64,000 nucleotides of DNA from Trichodelitschia bisporula (Eukaryota), in the NCBI GenBank assembly GCA_010356995.1, contig ML996699.1, positions 651,697 through 715,696 of the forward strand, written 5' to 3'. The notes under the pieces are model-generated. The model was not told the origin of the DNA. It saw nothing but the letters and a program-made list of their open reading frames with translations, and searched no databases. Position 1 is the first letter of the stretch. Each line of letters starts with the position of its first letter. Below are positions 6,501 to 16,564 of the stretch, in pieces. A program made the position numbers and the translations under genes.

Positions 6501-8308
6501 GACTGTTCACATCCTATTGCCGCAGACATGATTCCTGAAATCCTCAATCTGATGGTTAGGCTCTTGGAGTTTTCTAGTCCGGGCGCAAAGATGTGCACTG
6601 ATGCCGAGACTCTTTTCGCATTTTGCAAAACTCTCGATGCGCGCGCCTCCTTTGTGATCGAAGGCGACGGATCCTTACGGTTGCTAGACAAGCTATTTTC
6701 CGGTATATTTCAGCACATTGAAGCGGACGCCGCGCTCGATCGCAGCAGGGAATTCGTACGAAGCTTCAATGCTGCCTTCGAAAAGGTATTCACAAAAGGC
6801 TCAAGCTCAAGCGATGAAAAAGCCGCCAGTTTTCTCAAGGCTCCCGTAACGTTGGCCATGGTCAAGACGTGGCTCCAAACGCTCTGCAGAATTCCTGGCT
6901 CACCAGAGATCACCCCACAGTATCGCAAAGTCTTGTCCTCTGACTTTGAGCATCTGGCTGCGAACGTGGACGACGACAAGCTTTGGACTCCAAGGAGAGC
7001 TGTCTTCTTCGCCGTTCTTGACTTCCCCAAGGTGTTCTTGCCTGAAGGCAGCATTGCCACAACTTCCTCACGCCCTCGTCTACAGGCCGTGGAACCGAAA
7101 CTGGACCTTGATGTTGCGAGGCTCTACCCCTCTGAAGATGGCAAGGATTCTCTCAAAACTGGCAAGAGCAGTACTGAAGTTGGAGCTGAGTTTGCAAAAT
7201 TCATGGCTCTACTGCCGGCAACTGATGAAGAGATCGTTATTTTGAGACAGGCTTTGAAGTTGCTAAACCTAGACCTTCCCCCTGCTGAGAGAGCTGCTAT
7301 AGACGAGTCTTTGCAGCTTAGGCCTCTCAATGATACCCGTGGTTACGCGGAGATTGACTGGTTGATGGAGCAAGCCGAGCAGAAGCGAGATGCGGGCTAC
7401 TTGAAGTTGCTAGGGATCATTCTCAAGCGCAAGGATGGTAAGTCGCCCGCATCGCGAGACGTATCCCATGCTGACTCTCCAGCTGCTCCCCCTGGGGCCG
7501 CTACAGACGGTAGTAAAGCTCTGCTCCCCAAGCTGTGCGGGTACATGAAAGCAGCATCAACAATCGCCGACTTCGGCGCCTCAATCTCCTGCATCGACAT
7601 CATCCTCAGGGAAAAGGTAAAGCCCCTCTCCCCACCTTGCAGACCAAGTTAACCCTCCAGCCCTGGCTCATAACCCAATACGCCATCGACACCCTCCTCA
7701 CCACCCTAACTGCCCTCGCCTCCCCCACCTCCCCCTCCCTTCCACCTGAACACGCCCTCTTCATCCACACCCACCTCACCCGCACCGCCACTACCCTCGT
7801 CTCCCTCCACCGCAAGCGCCTCGGCGGCCGCATGCATCTCCTCGTCCCTCTCCTACAGGCCCTGCTCACGTGCCTCTTCACCCAGCACCGGTATGCGACA
7901 GCGCGCACACGCCTCGCCCACCCGCCCTGGCTATCCGAACCGCTCCCCGTCGGCGCCGCGACAGCATACACGCGACTGTTGACTACGCTGTGCGATCCCA
8001 CCGTGTCGAGCGCAACGGCGCATCGGCGGCGCGCGGGGGCGGAGTTGGTGGACGAGACGAAACGGGCTCGGCAGTATGTGGGCGAGTTCGTAGGGTATGT
8101 GCTTATGCAATATTGCACGTGTCAGCTGGGGGGCACGATGGAGAGCGAGGTGAGGGAGGTGCTGAGGCCGGGGCTGTGGGCTATGATGGATGTGGTTAGG
8201 ATGGAGGGGATGAGGGCTATGAATGCAGGGATGGGCAAGGATGAGAGGGTGCTTTGGGGGGCGATGTATAGTGAGTGGAGGAGGTTTGGACGGTGGAGGG
8301 GGAAGTAG
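3593..8308 (+). CDS. URB2: Nucleolar pre-ribosomal processing protein Urb2/Npa2
   Basis: Long helical protein joined across introns 3605-3651, 6132-6173, 6302-6345, 7438-7482 and 7617-7660. N-terminal EWVLRWLLDKL. The C-terminal domain HRKRLGGRMHLLVPLLQALL...YTRLLTTLCDPT...LRPGLWAMMD...LYSEW-like...GRWRG matches the fungal Urb2 pattern. Confidence 0.85.
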
Positions 8309-8503
8309 GAGACCGAGGTGATGGTGTACGAGAAGGAATAATAATGATTATACGGTGCTTCGCTGACGTCGTTCTTACTCTGTGATTCATGGTATCATCT
8401 TTGATTTCGTCACGCTAACTTTGGCCTCCCTAGTTCTAGACGCCTAAGGGAACATGTTCTACAACGCCAGACCAGCCGCCCAGCCCCCCCCCAATGAACT
8501 AGT

Positions 8504-11500
8504 CTATCTCTTCCGGCAAATATCCGACAACTTGACCACAATATCGTTGTTATGCTGGAACCCCTTCCCCATCCCCGACGCCACCTTCCCATCAATCTGA
8601 TTGCGAATCTTCGCCATCCCCTGCATCTCCTCCCTCGTCCCCCTCCCAATCGCCCCCCCCGCAAACCCATTCATCAATATCCCCATCACCGCCAACGGCG
8701 CTGACTCTGGATTGATCACCGCATCCGCAACTCCGAGCCCGATATCCGCCCCAACGCCCATGACTGCAAACACGCGCGCCATGTTCGCCAGTCCCGCGGA
8801 GAGCGCGCCTAACTCACCGATGAAGGGCACGACGGCGAAAATGGCGCCGAGGATCGTGAGGATGAGCGCTTGCTGCTCGCGCTTTTTTTCTTTCTTCCCG
8901 ATATCGCGCACCGTGCCGATTTGTTCGATCGCCTGGGAGAGCAGCATTGCGGGGACGGAGTACACTTTGAATGGGTCCGAGAGCGTGCCTTCCTGCCCCG
9001 AGGTGACCATATCCAGCTCGCTCTCGGTAACGCGGAGGAGCAGATCCTGCGCGTTGGGCAGGGCGAGCTCGATGATTTCCTTGGGATTCGGAACCGGATA
9101 GTCAGAGTTCATCTGCGGGATACCTAGGTACTCCCACGTGGAAATGGGGGTGCGATCAATCCCGCCATTGAACCCACTATCCTTACCATTGAAATTCACC
9201 CAACTCTTATCAATCCCCGTCTTCTCCGCCAACTCCTTCCAAAACCCATTCGCATCCCTTAGCGTAAACCGCATGCTGAATTTCGCGCTCAGGCCCGGCT
9301 TGTATTTAGTCAGATAGTCCTTGTCGCCGCAGGGTCCCTTTTCCGCCACGCTGTTGGAGCGCGTGGATTGGCAGTCGAAGTATTTAAGTCCCGGGCCGTC
9401 GCCCTCCCACCACCCCATGAAGTCCTTGATCTCACGGGCCATGTAGCTGCGGAAGACTTTACTGTAGGCGTTGAACAGGTCGTCGTAGCCTGGTTTTGTC
9501 TTGTTGTACTCCGACAGCGCGGTCTCGATCATAGTCCCTGATGTCGCGATGCCGGCGATGTACACGCAGTACGGGTCCATGGTGCTGGAGGCCTTGTCCA
9601 GGGCGTCGAAGGTGGGGAATTCGAGGTTAAAGTTGCACATCAGCGGGCCTGGTTCTTCGTCCTGGCGCTCGAGGGCGCCTTTCCGTGTGCCGCCGATGGT
9701 GGCGCCTTTGTTGGAGAGCAGGAGCCAGGCGTTTGTTGCGGTGGCGAAGCCGTTCTCTTCCGTTTTGCGCTCGACGGTTTTGAGGCTGGGAATCAAGTCA
9801 GCATCGCTCGGGATCCGCGGAACAGCAACCTACCCCTGAGGACTGATCACCTCCTTGCCCCCAACGGTAAACAGGTTGAACATCCACACGCCCTCCGAGT
9901 AATCCGTATCAATCAGCCTATCCTGACACACACCCCCAAACTTCGCACAGTCATCCTTATAATCCGTAAAAAAAGCATAAAAACCCCCGCCATACAGATA
10001 CACATTCCGACTCTTAATAACCCTCAGCGCCCACGCCTCGCGACACGTATCAAACCCCTTCGCCGCCCCACAATCCGCAAACTCAGGATCGTAGGCAAAG
10101 TGCTCGCTCGGCGGGTACGGGCGGAGGGACGGCGTCTGCCCGGCCTGGAAGTACGGCGTCTCGGACTGGATGTGTCCGAGGTAGATATTGTTCGCGCCAG
10201 CCAGCTGCCAGTTGTACAGCGTAGAGTGCTCGTTCGACACGCTGTACACCCAGCTCGGGCCCTGGGACTCGATGAGGACGCCGCGGGCCCCGTAGATGTT
10301 GATCCGGGTCTGTAGCTTCGATTCCACATCATGATCTGCGCCTCGCATTAGCATCATCCCTTCAAACCCTCCCCTCTCCTCTCCTCCTCTCAAAAAAGGA
10401 AAAAACATACCAGCCACCCAGAACCACATATTCTCCATATAAATCGAGCTGCCAGACCTAACATGCAACATCATCGCCGCCGCCATACAGCTCTCCTGTT
10501 TCTGCGCCCCAAACTGGTGACAATTGCTCTCGAGCAGCCCACTCCCCGCCGCGCCGCCCACGCGGAATATCACGTCGAACATGGCAGCGCTGCCTTGGTT
10601 CGATTGGTAGATGTTCCATTCCATGAGCACGGCGCCCGCGGTCGGGCCGGACTGCGTGAAGAGCATATCTGAGATTTCGACGGCGCCGACGTCGCCGGGC
10701 TGGCCCACCCTGCTCACGTTAGCTTTATCGTCTGTGGATGGGGGGTGGTGGAGCGACCGTACCTGGCGAGAATATAGGGATGATCTGGATCCGCAAACTT
10801 GGCCCCCGTAGCCACAATCTGGCTCCACAGCACACCCACCATGCGTGTCCCTGACGGAATGAAAAGCGTCTCATCAACCAAATATATCCCGGCGGGAAAC
10901 ACAAGAACCTTCTTCTCCCCCGCCGCCTTTGCCAACGCCTCATTAATCCCCCGCGCATTCCCCGCCGCGCTGGTCCCATCGTTCTTAACCCCGAAGTCTA
11001 GGACGTTGATGAAATTTCCCGCGGGCTCGCGGTGGTACATCGGTTTCTCGCGCTCGTACCAGTCATCCAGTAGCAGCAGACCAGGATCCTTCTTCGGGAC
11101 CGGAATCGGACCCATGGTTATCCGCCCCTCGGGCGACGCATCGTCAAACCGCCGCCCTAGGCCCCAGAGCGGGATTTTCTGCGGCCCGCCGGCGAGGAGC
11201 GCGTCCCCTGTGTTGGAGGCGACGGCGACGCGGGAGGAGCCCGCGAGCTCGATGTTTTCGAGGAGGACGGTGGCTTGGTACCCGGTTGTTTGGAGGACGA
11301 TGAGCATGGTGTCGACGTTGGTGAAGCTGCTGCCTTGGACGATCAGAGAGCCGGTACTCTGCTTCTTCTGCGTGTTGCCGTCGACGCCGAAGCCTGTTGC
11401 GTTGATGCCGACTTTGCAGTCGGACACGAGCATTGATTTCCAGGTGAAGCCCCAGGACCAGAGCATTTCGATTGCCGTCCTAAGCCGTTAGCAGCGTCCA

Positions 11501-12589
11501 ATTGGGTGCGGAGATTACCCTACTGGCACTTCGAGAAGCGCAGGTTACGCGCCGTGTACTGCTGACTGCCCGCCACGAAGCCAACCGCGCCGCCAGTGAA
11601 AGATAAGTCGCTCACGAAACCTAGCCCGTTAGCCGGTCCGCTCAGCCCCGTGGAGCTTACTCACCTCCGCTCCCGTTTTCCATGAAGACACCGCGGTGCG
11701 TAGCCCCCGCCGTGGTCGGCATCTTAAAGTCGAGATTGTGCAACGTGCACGCCTGTGACACCTGCCAATGAATACCAGCCGGGAACCCATTCCCCACCCC
11801 CCCCTCGACATAATTCGGCATGAGCGTAAGATCCAGCACCAAATTCCTAATCTGGCGATAAAAATTGTTCTGATTGATCCACCTATGCACCCAAATTAGC
11901 CCGTTCCCCACCCCCATACTCAAATCAACTCACCAGTTCTGCCCATTGCTCTCCGGGATATAAACATCCGTATCAACCAGCGCAATGCCCTTGAAATCCT
12001 TCGCCCCGAGGATAACAGCGCGATCGGACGGGTCCCCGGCGAAGACCGTGAAGTAGTACTGGATGATAGGCTTCGTGATCAGGTACTTCCCCGGCGGGAA
12101 GTACACCACCGCCCCTTTGGTCGAGGTTGCATTGCACCCCTCGCCACACCGGCCCCCCCTCGTCACAGCGCTCATAATCGCCGCCCAGTCATCCGTGACC
12201 CCATCGCCCTTCGCACCATACGCCTTCACGTTGCGCAGGACGGGGTAATCAGCGGATCCGGCGAGGGGCTGCTTGTGCGCGTATTTCGGGTCAGCCATCC
12301 AATACGCCATCGGGGCTTGGGCGAAGCCTTCCGTGCTGGAGGTGAGGCGGAAGTTGGCGGTGACGTTGGCGAAGCGGGGGGGGGAGGGGGAGGAGGAGTT
12401 CAGGTGGGTTAGACCTGGGTTGGAGTCGAGGTGCAGGGCGAGGATTTCGGAGGTTAGGGCGGCGGTGCTGTTCATGTATGCTGCGTAGGGGGCGCCGGGG
12501 GGGCCGATGGCCATGAAGCTGCATGTTGAGAGAGTGGAGAAGTAGATGAGGAGAAGGGTGGTCAGGAGGGGACCGTAGGAGACGGCCAT
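8504..12589 (-). CDS. Secreted GH55 exo-beta-1,3-glucanase (two beta-helix domains) fused to a ~425 aa C-terminal region ending in a hydrophobic hairpin
   Basis: Signal peptide MAVSYGPLLTTLLLIYFSTLSTCS. GH55 motifs RNVKAYGAKGDGVTDDWAAI, VYFPPGKY, NQNNFYRQIRN, GIHWQVSQA, ENGSGG, WVADHD, QSETPYFQ. Introns 11883-11933, 11621-11664, ~11480-11524, ~10711-10762, 10336-10410 and 9786-9833. The last intron joins ISPQG in frame to LKTVERK of the 8504-9785 exon. Confidence 0.85.
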
Positions 12590-13381
12590 GTTGGGCTATA
12601 GCCTATGAATGATGGTGATAGAGAAAGCGTCGTTCGCACAAGAGAAGCTTAGGGAGAGGACGATGTGGATGTGGGGATACAGCGGGAGAGCGCCTTGATA
12701 TCTCCACGATAGGACCTGAAGTCGGAGAACCGTGCCATGGTGAGCCGGGTCCAGGTATGCGGTCAATTGATGCCCAGACCACAGCGACTTCGCAACCCAT
12801 CCTCGCATGACCGGCCGCTGTGCCTGAAACGCGTTTATTCCTTCGCGCGCTTGCGCGTCGAGCATCGTCGTCACCAGGCACAGCCCGAAAGACCCGAAGA
12901 TAGACTGATTCACAGCGCTAGCGACCGGGAACCAAGAAATGTTGCCGGATAGCTCGCCGAAAAAAAAACCCTGTCCTAGGCATAAAAGTCGTGATAAGTA
13001 GAAAAAAAGGGCCGAGTAGAGACGCCGACGACAGGACAAGCTACTCGGCACTTTCTAGTCTTGGTTAAATGCCTTTATTTTGGACACGGGTACGTACCTT
13101 GACCCCGAAATGGTAATTTGAGGTGCATGGAAGGATCCGAAGGGGTAGATATTCATCTATTTTAAATTAGCATCGTGCACTGTTCAGTGACGTTAGCTTA
13201 ACCCCAAAGATAGCCCAATAGAGCAAAATAATTGTTCACCGCGTACAGACTTAGACAAAACGCAACTCACAGTTCGACATAATTTGAACGAAGCAATTCG
13301 TCCTCAGGCGTGTCTCTCTTCGCCATCTCTCTACCAGCCTCGCCAGCCAACTCCTCCATTGGCCAGCCAGCAACCGCAACC

Positions 13382-14248
13382 ATGCATCTCAGCCTCAGCC
13401 TTGTCCTCCCCCTCCTCCTCGCCCTTCTCACCCTCACCAACGCCAAAACGCTGCGCAAGCGTGACATGGACGCTGGGCCTTACGAAGACCTCCTCTTCTA
13501 CTACGCCTACAAAATGAACTGGCACGCCGCAAACAACGGCGGCCCAGGCCTCACCATCGCGCCCAGCTGCGTTGCCAGCGGCCGCCCCTGCACCTTCCTC
13601 GAGTTCCTCCGAGCAACAGCCGCAGATCCGACACAAATCAACATGTCCGCAGGTGCCGGGACTTCTGATCCAGACATCAACGACGCGAAGCTGAACCGGT
13701 ACGTCCAGCCGAGTGGAAAAGCCTGGGCGGGCGTGTACGATGGTGCCAAGCTGCACGGGAAGTACAACCCCGCGGTGAAGGGGTTCGGGCAATTGATCTC
13801 GCTCACAACGGACGCGGTTCAAGCCTGTCGGGTGTGGCAAAAGGGGATAGATCCGAAGTCAGCGCCAGCGGTAGCGATGAAGCAGGCCTTCGACCAGGTG
13901 TTCCCCGCAGTGCGACACATCTATGCCGCGCGGATGAGGGCCACGTGGCCGTATCGGTTGCGGATTGCCCAGAGGGAGGCGAATAAGCTCGGGATTAAGC
14001 TCGAGACGACGCAAGTTGGGTATTTCGACAACCAGTACAGATGGGAGAAATGGAACTGGGCAAAGACGGCGAAGCCGTATGCGACTAATGATCCGAAAAT
14101 TAGGGCGCTGGCGAAGAAACTGAGATCGCTCGAGTCGACCGATTTTGAGGCGAAGGGCCTTACGAGCGAGGAAAGCAAGTCCAGGGCGCATTCGGCGGTG
14201 CTTCAACATGCGTCTAACGCTCTTCAGACGCTGGATAAGGAATGTTGA
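13382..14248 (+). CDS. Secreted protein of unknown function (288 aa), candidate toxin/effector
   Basis: Intronless ORF. Signal peptide MHLSLSLVLPLLLALLTLTNA, then KTLRKR (Kex2-type site), then DMDAGPYEDLLFYYAYKM...IAPSCVASGRPCTFLEFL. Basic helical C-terminal half ending in Cys. Confidence 0.8.
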   Translation: MHLSLSLVLPLLLALLTLTNAKTLRKRDMDAGPYEDLLFYYAYKMNWHAANNGGPGLTIAPSCVASGRPCTFLEFLRATAADPTQINMSAGAGTSDPDINDAKLNRYVQPSGKAWAGVYDGAKLHGKYNPAVKGFGQLISLTTDAVQACRVWQKGIDPKSAPAVAMKQAFDQVFPAVRHIYAARMRATWPYRLRIAQREANKLGIKLETTQVGYFDNQYRWEKWNWAKTAKPYATNDPKIRALAKKLRSLESTDFEAKGLTSEESKSRAHSAVLQHASNALQTLDKEC

Positions 14249-14448
14249 GTGTACGATGGCAGGCGGTGAAGTATGCTGAAACCTCATGTTTTTGGACACA
14301 AGTTCTCATCCGCTACAATTGTCTGTATCTAGATGCGCTGGCTTACTGTTATTCATCATTGCTACCACTTCGTTAGCTGCCATCATCAGCTAGCAGGTAG
14401 CTAGCATTCTTCTGAGCCCATGAAGACCTACCTCTGACCCCTACCTTA

Positions 14449-15686
14449 CTACCACATCAAAACCGGCTTCACCACTTTCCCCGCCAGCATATCCTCCACC
14501 GCCCGGCCAAAGTCCTCAACTTTATAAGGCGTGATGAGTTTCTCAATCGGGAACCCGCCCTCGCGGCACCACCCCACGAGACGAGGCACAAACTCAGCAG
14601 GAACACACTCGCCCTCAATAGCCCCAACAATCCGCTTCCCACTCGCCATGAACTCGAACACGCCGAGCTTGAGTTCGACCTTGGGATTTGTAGTCCCAAC
14701 CTGCACGTACGTGCCCGCCGGCCGCGTGAACCCGATTCCCGCCTCGATCAGCGGCAGGTACCCGGTCGTGTCGAGCACGACGCTGGGACCCACGCCCTGC
14801 GTCACTTCACGGACCGCGTCCGCCAGGCCATCTCCTAGTTCCGTCGTGTTGAACGCGTGGGTTGCGCCCAGCTCTTGCGCTAGTGTCAGCCGAGTGGGCA
14901 ACCTGTCGATAGCGATGATGGTGGGGCACCCAATGCGCTTTGCGGTCATGAGCGCGGCGAGGCCGACGGCGCCGAGCCCGAGCACGGCGACGGTGTCGGA
15001 CGGGGTGGTTGCGGCGGCGTTGACGATGGACCCAGCGCCGGTTTGGAGGGCACAACCGAAGGGGGCGAGTTGGAAGAGGTCGGTGGGGAAACGCAGGAAG
15101 GGGGTTGCCGGGATGAGGGAGGACACGTGCGCGATTGTGTGAGAGGCGAAGGAGGATTGCCCGAAGAAGGTTCCGAGGATGGAGGGAGAGGAGGGCGAGG
15201 AGTCGGAAGTGGGCGAGGAGAACGTTAAAGTCCCGTGGAAATTGAGTGTGTCATAGTGGGTGCAGTGGCTGGGCCGGCCGGCGACGCAGAGTGGACAGGT
15301 GCCGCAGTAGGAAAATGAAAGGACGACGGGGTCATCGATAGCATAGTTCTCAACGCCGGGGCCGAGGGCGAGAATGCGTCCAGCGCCTGAGAGGATATGA
15401 GTTCGGATGGTGTGAGATTTGAGGATGTGGGAAAGCGGTATGCAATGGAACTGAACAGCGAAGACGACCAACCTTCATGACCCATAACCCTCGGATACCC
15501 TCCAATATCCTTCGCATCATCACCAAAGTGTATGTCCGTATGGCAAATTCCCGACGCCCAGATGTGGACCAGAACCTCATCCTTCTGCAACGGGCGGATG
15601 GTGACATCCTCCAAAGTCCATTTCCCCTCTTTATACGGTCCCCGCGTCACGATTGCTCGACCAGAGGTGGGCGTTGAGGTGGACAT
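14449..15686 (-). CDS. Zinc-dependent medium-chain (aryl-)alcohol dehydrogenase
   Basis: GICHTD, GHEG|AG across intron 15387-15472, structural zinc cysteines CGTCPLCVAGRPSHC, GLGAVG Rossmann motif, C-terminal GKVVKPVL. Confidence 0.92.
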
Positions 15687-15737: not shown

Positions 15738-15990
15738 TCGATGGATAGAGGCTGGAGATGTGTCAACGTTCGCCAACTCCCCGCTCGATGGATAGAGGCT
15801 GGAGATGTGTCAACGTTCGACAACTCCCCGCTCGAAGGTTAGAGGTTGGAGATGTGTCAACGTTCGACAACTACCCCGCTCGAAGGATAGAGGTTGGAGA
15901 TGTGTCAACGTTCGACAACTACCCCGCTCGAAGGATGGAGGTTGCAGATGTGTCAAACGTTCGATAACTGCCCACTCGAAGGATTGAAGT
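15738..15990. repeat. Minisatellite, 5 copies plus a partial copy of a 47-48 bp unit
   Basis: The unit TCGA(T/A)GGATAGAGG(C/T)TGGAGATGTGTCAACGTTCGACAACT(A)CCCCGC starts at 15738, 15785, 15832, 15880 and 15928, with a partial copy at 15976. Confidence 0.95.
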
Positions 15991-16564
15991 CGGCCCTGTT
16001 GTACAGCTGGTCGGACCTTCCCCGCCTGCCGTAGGTCGTCCACAAGCGCGTCATCACGTGATTTCATCAAAGAGCGCCGACGTATCACAAGGCACCCTGC
16101 AGAAGCAGACGCAGGTACAAAGCTATCAGCATGCCGGGCATAATCCTCACCCCGAGAAGGGGGGAAAGCTCAAGATATCGAGAGAGTTCTGCGAAACGGG
16201 AGCTGGCAGCGGCCCCCAAGGCTGGCTCAAGTTGCCATGACGATACATGGCCAGGGCGGGGGAAGTGGAGAAAAAAGATCGGAGGGCCCGCTGGGTCCGG
16301 TGCGAGGCTGAGGCTTTTGACGCTTGCGTTCGCGTTGCTGCGGCGATGACAACCGTGCTGGCCGGTTTACAATGGAGTCTTGCGCGGGAGTCTTGCGCTT
16401 GTGGGATGAGTAAAGGCCGAGAAATGCGGTGGTAGAGTGGAGTTGGGCGATGCTGCCTGCGGCATTTGCCACTGGCGCATGTAAGGGTGTGAGAATTTGG
16501 ATGCGCGTGGAGGATGGTGGAGTTGAGGGAATCGAGTACGGCAGAAAGACTTAGAGACGACAGA

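Follow-up and report, generated by a model that had tools for sequence, protein, structure and literature searches.

A GH55-tail fusion gene and its divergent small-protein neighbor in Trichodelitschia bisporula: a candidate zymocin-like killer toxin pair

Two divergent genes between Urb2 and alcohol dehydrogenase

We analyzed a 64-kb stretch of contig ML996699.1 from the Dothideomycete Trichodelitschia bisporula (hereafter the window; all coordinates are positions in it) that contains a candidate counterpart of zymocin, the killer toxin of the yeast Kluyveromyces lactis. The candidate consists of two genes, a large one on the minus strand (8504..12589) that encodes a glycoside hydrolase family 55 (GH55) head followed by a long C-terminal tail, and a small open reading frame (ORF) on the plus strand (13382..14248) that encodes a putative secreted protein. 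We refer to the first as the GH55-tail or carrier gene and to the second as the candidate cargo gene. As the earlier note on this DNA had described, the two are divergent, with 792 bp between their ATGs, and lie between the genes for Urb2 (PF10441, 7832-8305) and a zinc alcohol dehydrogenase (ADH, 14452-15686). No other ORF of at least 100 amino acids is present between Urb2 and ADH.

The carrier gene extends on the minus strand from an ATG at 12589 to a stop codon at 8504 in seven exons (12589-11934, 11882-11665, 11620-11524, 11479-10763, 10709-10411, 10335-9834 and 9785-8504) and encodes 1256 amino acids ending in ICRKR. All six introns have GT..AG ends and CTAAC-like branch points. RNA evidence came from contigs of two public runs of one sample (X1 and X2), listed just as 'RNA?'. 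The contigs omit exactly the six predicted introns, the CT..AC ends of which correspond to GT..AG on the minus strand; X1 and X2 are therefore sources of spliced RNA, in which a single mRNA carries both the glucanase head and the tail.

The 792-bp divergent region (12590..13381) is mostly transcribed as the 5' untranslated region (UTR) of the carrier gene. Minus-type introns of this 5' UTR are found at 13051-13097 in both runs and at 13157-13270 in X2 only, and the second X1 record extends to about 13179 (reckoned from its joint). Another minus-type intron, at 14362-14431, is present in both runs just past the small ORF and just downstream of the ADH stop codon. RNA contigs cover both the carrier gene and the small ORF, and one X2 contig spans the 3' end of ADH, the small ORF and the GH55 gene.

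The exons at 9834..12589 encode a signal-peptide-like N-terminus (hydrophobic residues 7-30) and the head, which comprises precursor residues from about 95 to 830. In a Pfam search, the pectate-lyase-like beta-helix family PF12708 was matched in exons 1, 2 and 4 (E = 2.3e-30, 2.2e-17 and 1.9e-12), and no GH18 or LysM match was found in the head. The ORF of exons 5 and 6 alone matches the solved GH55 enzymes 5m5z (E = 9.7e-50), 3eqn (2.3e-37) and 8jhh (1e-22). Judged by its tandem beta-helix domains and its similarity to characterized enzymes, the head is a member of GH55. Its SNEHS sequence (S-x-E-H-S) aligns with SSEHS of 5m5z, the motif in which we take the catalytic Glu of GH55 to lie. Ordinary GH55 enzymes (5m5z, 3eqn and 8jhh) likewise have two pectate-lyase-like beta-helix domains, but with 752-758 residues they stop once the second one is complete, whereas the carrier extends 426 residues further.

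The public record of this gene is a 'pectin lyase-like protein, partial' of 870 amino acids (P0001) that is a 100% identical match. It spans just residues 94-953 of the RNA-supported 1256-residue model and, where exons join, departs from that model in three places, by 1, 2 and 7 residues. The signal peptide and some 300 tail residues are absent from it. The public gene model is thus partial and conceals the fusion of head and tail, and for this reason similar fusions are probably under-annotated.

A tail shared with chitinases

The C-terminal tail of 426 residues (precursor residues 831-1256) is encoded in the last exon (8507..9784). Near its end is a Gly/Ala-rich hydrophobic region (residues 1136-1210; 8645..8869), which is preceded by KKR (KR at 8879-8884). 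Kyte-Doolittle analysis resolves three hydrophobic stretches here, at residues 1133-1163 (maximum 2.33), 1165-1188 (1.73) and 1191-1210 (1.45). The earlier note had described the large protein as a wall hydrolase with a long membrane-like tail ending in ICRKR, and the GH55 matches, the 426-residue tail and its three hydrophobic stretches all agree with that description. The beta subunit of zymocin is also hydrophobic.

Four residues from the C-terminus (...DICRKR) is Cys1253 (tail residue 423; codon 8516..8518). Together with Cys138 and Cys152 of the tail it is invariant in an alignment of 25 tails (25/25), and the terminal Cys is kept in all 136 database relatives that match through to the profile end. 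The tail is also C-terminal in these relatives, with a median of 0 residues beyond the match and more than 30 residues in only 5 of the 136. We rejected the idea of a conserved Kex2 site ahead of the hydrophobic region, as KR or RR occurs there in just 7 of the 25 aligned tails. No dibasic site was found between the GH55 head and the tail, and a cut of the kind that separates the zymocin alpha and beta subunits therefore cannot be placed.

Searches of the tail against Pfam and PDB sequences, with the single sequence and with a profile, gave nothing beyond chance level. A word-indexed search of longer proteins aligned the tail from residue 47 to its last residue with residues 1002-1384 of a Humicola protein of 1384 amino acids (P0002; 27% identity, E = 2e-33) that carries LysM, the chitin-binding module CBM18 and GH18. 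The terminal motif ICRKR is paired with ICPRR in this alignment. LysM, CBM18 and GH18 are the domain set of 'killer toxin-like' group C chitinases. An exhaustive phmmer search against 1.84 billion representatives recovered 581 relatives of the tail at E ≤ 1e-3, 63 of them at E ≤ 1e-30. These similarities place the carrier, with near certainty, in the family defined by chitinase tails.

We examined the heads of the 150 best phmmer relatives with a Pfam scan and with blastp against the GH55 head of the carrier itself. GH18 was found in 33, often with LysM and/or CBM18, the alpha-1,3-glucanase family GH71 in nine (e.g. Aspergillus bombycis XP_022386813.1) and a stretch resembling the GH55 head in 11; in the remaining 97, many of them short and probably fragments or split gene models, no head was recognizable. 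GH55-tail proteins occur in Colletotrichum chrysophilum (XP_053041241.1), Myriangium duriaei (KAF2153724.1), Acrodontium crateriforme (WPH01347.1) and Claviceps maximensis (KAG6009923.1). GH55 heads need 3 changes on a tree of 130 tails, compared with a mean of 11.8 after shuffling, and a value this low was reached in none of 500 shuffles. Head types are strongly clustered on the tree, though not strictly monophyletic, a pattern that fits a few ancient exchanges of heads. Two tail relatives have further domains: in P0097 (1175 amino acids) GH18 and the tail are followed by a HeLo domain (PF14479, residues 1068-1150), and P0066 continues into an MFS transporter. These two may be merged gene models or real fusions.

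The AlphaFold2 model of the tail (102 alignment rows) has a predicted local distance difference test (pLDDT) score of 78.3. A confident alpha/beta domain (tail residues 45-305) is followed by the low-confidence hydrophobic region (about 306-380), over most of which (tail residues 320-359) pLDDT is below 50, and by confident C-terminal helices (384-425). No clear solved relative of this fold was found in the PDB with Foldseek (0 matches at E ≤ 1e-3), and a VIA-align wide search reached a best Z of 6.6, with no match at Z ≥ 8.

The small protein and two metagenome loci

The candidate cargo gene is an intronless ORF, identified from the ORF list and its coding statistics, that encodes 288 amino acids ending in KEC. 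No ORF of 288 codons arose in 300 shuffles of positions 12590-14448, where the longest ORF starting with ATG had 227. The GC content at third codon positions (GC3) is 0.734, compared with 0.767 in the GH55 coding sequence, and the codon log-odds are +0.256 in the ORF's own frame and −0.31 to +0.04 in the other five.

Residues 1-21 (13382-13444) resemble a signal peptide; for both proteins signal peptides were judged by eye and hydropathy, not by a predictor. They are followed by KTLRKR (residues 22-27, 13445-13462; KR at 26-27). Residues 28-288, the mature protein if it is cut after KR27, form a protein of 261 amino acids and 28.9 kDa with an isoelectric point (pI) of 9.3 that starts DMDAGPYEDLLFYYAYKMNW..C-x6-C-x-F-x-EF. 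Within this start, residues 33-83 (13478..13630) form a conserved motif, PYE..LFYYAYKM ... C-x6-C-x-F-x-EF, which includes Glu35 (codon 13484-13486). This Glu is residue 8 given a cut after KR27 and residue 14 after the likely signal-peptidase site between TNA and K. The last residue is Cys288 (codon 14243..14245). All of this bears out the earlier description of a small basic protein with a signal peptide, a KR site and a terminal KEC.

Among proteins of 158-504 residues in a collection of 5.8 billion clusters, the small protein matched just itself (longer and shorter forms were not searched). Pfam gave chance-level rows or nothing at E ≤ 10, and the ESM Atlas had no usable match for the small protein or for P0161. 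Its AlphaFold2 model (five alignment rows) had a pLDDT of 38.6 and was too poor for a fold search. Prediction of a complex between tail residues 44-426 and residues 28-288 of the small protein returned no answer (scores 0.01 and 0.00), which weighs neither for nor against a partnership.

A scan of metagenome contigs with a seven-row tail alignment (A2) as the query led to two loci, L001 and L002, each with a GH55-tail gene. The L001 protein is intact, encoded without introns and 1321 amino acids long. The L002 gene is in two overlapping frames (7143-9836 and 9833-11137, overlapping at 9833-9836), and this split could reflect a frameshift, a short intron or an assembly error. On the tail tree, both loci fall in a GH55-rich clade other than that of the window. 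At each locus, a secreted protein of ~338 amino acids is encoded about 3.3-3.6 kb upstream of the GH55-tail gene and in divergent orientation. Two genes lie between the toxin-like and GH55-tail genes (L001 2444-3175 and 3870-4358; L002 4601-5044 and 5728-6237), one encoding a CFEM-repeat protein and one a Ser/Thr-rich secreted protein, and neither has a counterpart in the pair in the window.

The N-terminus of this L001/L002 protein family (VAA/NGASLG[YF]E..QFYYVYKMEY..C-x7-C-x-[FY]-DEF, with the slash at the predicted cut) is similar to that of the small protein in the window. All five family members have a Glu at residue 8, counted directly from the Asn after VAA, and this Glu aligns with Glu35. 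By blastp, the small protein matches the L001 protein at E = 6e-5 and the L002 protein at E = 0.003, and hhalign of the five-member family profile against it gave a probability of 81% (E = 1.2e-5, 50 columns). When the whole 64-kb window was searched by tblastn, the best match of 4/4 family members was the N-terminus of the small ORF (E = 0.005-0.19). The earlier note had proposed that homologs of the two genes should be linked in other genomes, and a remote homolog of the small protein does indeed lie divergent to the GH55-tail gene at both loci; the similarity is weak, and the two loci add one lineage.

A killer-toxin reading and its alternatives

Small clusters of genes that resemble zymocin have been described in many Pezizomycotina genomes by Heneghan, Salzberg and Wolfe (preprint 10.1101/2024.10.25.620242), from which we took the features used here to recognize toxin clusters. 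These clusters pair a C-II chitinase with a small secreted toxin candidate, and some of them also have an immunity gene related to pGKL1 ORF3. The chitinases usually have LysM, and those adjoining a toxin gene have a terminal Cys in 29 of 31 cases. Of 50 toxin candidates, all but four have a Glu at position 8 of the mature protein (Glu-8), the hallmark catalytic residue of zymocin-like nucleases, and only five lack a Cys close to the C-terminus; two of three candidates tested stopped the growth of yeast. At two loci, mentioned in one sentence, a toxin candidate lies beside a GH71 hydrolase (Aspergillus flavus) or a xylanase (Xylaria arbuscula) instead of a chitinase. Its authors found no cluster in Dothideomycetes or Leotiomycetes, and the main text names no GH55 protein.

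The pair in T. bisporula resembles these clusters in several respects. Next to a gene for a secreted hydrolase whose C-terminal tail closes with a conserved Cys is one for a small, putatively secreted protein with a C-terminal Cys and, if cut after KR27, Glu-8; both are nuclear genes, with introns in the carrier, set between unrelated housekeeping genes. In contrast to the clusters in the preprint, the head is GH55 and not C-II GH18 with LysM or CBM18, the host is a member of a class for which no cluster is given there, the small protein matched only itself in one size-range search, Glu-8 requires a KR cut in addition to signal peptidase, and no immunity gene was seen. Homologs of the tail are found in GH18 chitinases with the cluster-type domains, which may belong to subgroup C-II. 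The pair departs from the described clusters in one defining feature, the GH18 C-II head; the other features that could be checked were all found, Glu-8 conditionally. The GH71 and xylanase loci are similar in having a non-chitinase hydrolase beside a toxin candidate and differ in the family of the head, and the main text of the preprint is silent on whether those hydrolases carry the tail. Among the 150 best relatives of the tail, GH71 heads are found on this same tail, as noted above.

Zymocin itself, with its alpha/beta precursor and gamma-toxin encoded on pGKL1, likewise combines a hydrolase of a wall polymer with a C-terminal part and a disulfide-linked intracellular toxin that has its own signal peptide (preprint 10.1101/2024.10.25.620242; PMC13442484). 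Unlike the pair studied here, it has a chitinase as its head, and its intronless genes reside on a linear plasmid in the cytoplasm; the site of alpha/beta processing is not identifiable in the carrier. The analogy to zymocin drawn in the earlier note has gained from the homology of the tail to LysM/CBM18/GH18 chitinase tails, from the conserved terminal Cys and from the hallmarks of the neighbor, of which Glu-8 holds only if KR27 is cut. The idea is less new than the note had supposed, as zymocin-like nuclear clusters of filamentous fungi, two of them with non-chitinase hydrolases, are already described. Literature searches, in which some matches were judged by title, found nothing tying GH55 to zymocin-like or other killer toxins, and a term search of two later papers from the Heneghan, Salzberg and Wolfe group found no mention of GH55, glucanase, GH71 or Dothideomycetes.

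Given these likenesses, the most likely reading, with a probability of roughly 0.55, is that the pair represents a nuclear killer toxin of the zymocin type whose wall-targeting head, usually a GH18 chitinase, is instead a GH55 beta-1,3-glucanase. That the neighbor is the cargo of the carrier is probable; that this cargo is an RNase is only an analogy. Under such a mechanism, both proteins would enter the secretory pathway, and the mature N-terminus of the partner would arise by a cut after KR27. The GH55 head of the 1256-residue carrier would bind or cut beta-1,3-glucan in the wall of a rival. The conserved tail of ~380 residues, with its predicted alpha/beta domain, three putative glycine-rich hydrophobic helices and a C-terminal helical piece leading to Cys1253, might hold the basic 29-kDa partner through a Cys1253-Cys288 disulfide and aid its crossing of the target membrane. 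Inside the target the disulfide would be reduced, and the partner might then act as a toxin that cleaves RNA by means of the mature Glu at position 8.

Several points weigh against this reading. The tie between the small protein and the L001/L002 family is confined to about 50 residues, with an hhalign probability of 81% and not 95%. The tblastn scores of the true query were weak (29.3 and 27.7 bits; E = 0.004 and 0.011), and 200 shuffled queries attained 30.4, 28.5, 28.5 and 27.7 bits, which places the score alone at p of about 0.01-0.02. Taken by itself, the score has only modest significance; what makes the case is its conjunction with the position directly behind the signal peptide, the matching register of the Glu and the neighbor that both have in common. 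L001 and L002 show synteny to one another and therefore represent one further lineage, not two, and the late Cys of their small proteins is not terminal but lies ~15 residues before a KRRR site in four of the five members. Searches of the small protein against solved proteins in the PDB, by single sequence and by profile and with gamma-toxins included, found no sequence similarity. Kex2 processing is assumed from the KR site, and signal peptidase alone would put the Glu at residue 14. The tail is likened to the beta subunit of the yeast toxin through statements in the preprint, not by direct alignment. No immunity gene was found between Urb2 and ADH, where no reference sequence or profile was used in looking for one. 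Finally, all three splice junctions that flank the small ORF have minus-strand polarity. The RNA over this ORF may be a merge by the assembler of overlapping transcripts from opposite strands or antisense read-through from the minus strand, and because the contigs cannot separate the two, they do not establish a plus-strand mRNA for the small gene.

The last of these points bears on the possibility that the 288-codon ORF is not a gene, and that the RNA over it is antisense read-through or a 5'-UTR isoform of the minus-strand genes. The junctions 13051-13097, 13157-13270 and 14362-14431 are all of minus-strand type, as expected under this explanation, and the X2 contig bridges the 3' end of ADH to the GH55 gene. 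However, an intronless plus-strand gene yields no strand-informative junction, and unstranded assembly can merge overlapping transcripts. The ORF is also longer than any in 300/300 shuffles, its GC3 is close to that of the carrier, its log-odds are positive in its own frame only, its start resembles a clean signal peptide, and the protein-level match to the L001/L002 family falls in its frame. We therefore regard this explanation as extremely improbable. A more substantial alternative, though still a rather unlikely one, is that the carrier is a member of the chitinase-tail family with an unrelated, lineage-specific secreted protein as its neighbor. There would then be no cargo, and the tail would act alone, for example as a membrane anchor tethering a wall-remodeling glucanase to the surface of the producer, as a pore-forming element or as a wall-stress module. 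Not every C-II chitinase gene has a toxin neighbor (10.1101/2024.10.25.620242), the three hydrophobic stretches could anchor the tail in a membrane, and the small protein is an orphan in the 5.8-billion-protein search (158-504 residues), with a tie to the L001/L002 family based on ~50 residues. Nevertheless, the terminal Cys, the Glu at position 8 after KR27 and the basic 29-kDa mature protein would all have to be coincidences without a cargo. Moreover, the ORF start to which all four L001/L002 queries point in the window is the one beside the GH55-tail gene, and the family's own genes are divergently linked to GH55-tail genes. A terminal Cys kept in 136/136 relatives of the tail also suits partner binding better than an anchor.

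It is also conceivable, but quite unlikely, that the two proteins are partners and the small one is not an RNase toxin, having instead another toxin activity or serving to assist or protect the carrier. Neither sequence nor fold evidence connects the small protein with any nuclease. The toxin groups of the preprint share no sequence relationship with one another, so that sequence gives no guide to activity, and one of the three tested candidates was inactive in yeast (10.1101/2024.10.25.620242). Against this stands the Glu at mature position 8, which the same source describes as the hallmark catalytic residue of zymocin-like nucleases and which is invariant in the L001/L002 family and aligned with Glu35.

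Outside the pair, just upstream of ADH, overlapping ORFs on both strands at 15758-16067 repeat a peptide-like unit (…VNVRQLP.R…), which suggests a short tandem DNA repeat.

Returning to the killer-toxin reading, the data suggest that such systems have the tail as their constant part, onto which heads directed at chitin, alpha-1,3-glucan and beta-1,3-glucan have been swapped. More tentatively, and with some doubt, what defines a polymorphic toxin system of fungi might be the conserved tail of ~380 residues, as its delivery module, and not the chitinase, with GH18, GH71 or GH55 heads for these three polymers and many unrelated cargos. If the tail is such a module, the head would set which rivals' walls are breached, and the GH55 form could reach chitin-poor organisms such as oomycetes. 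If the killer-toxin reading is right, toxins of the zymocin type would not be bound to chitinases, an exchangeable head would widen their possible target range, and such systems would extend to the Dothideomycetes, a class rich in plant-associated fungi. The tail profile, together with the terminal Cys, would provide a search handle for antifungal toxin cargos that sequence searches would miss.

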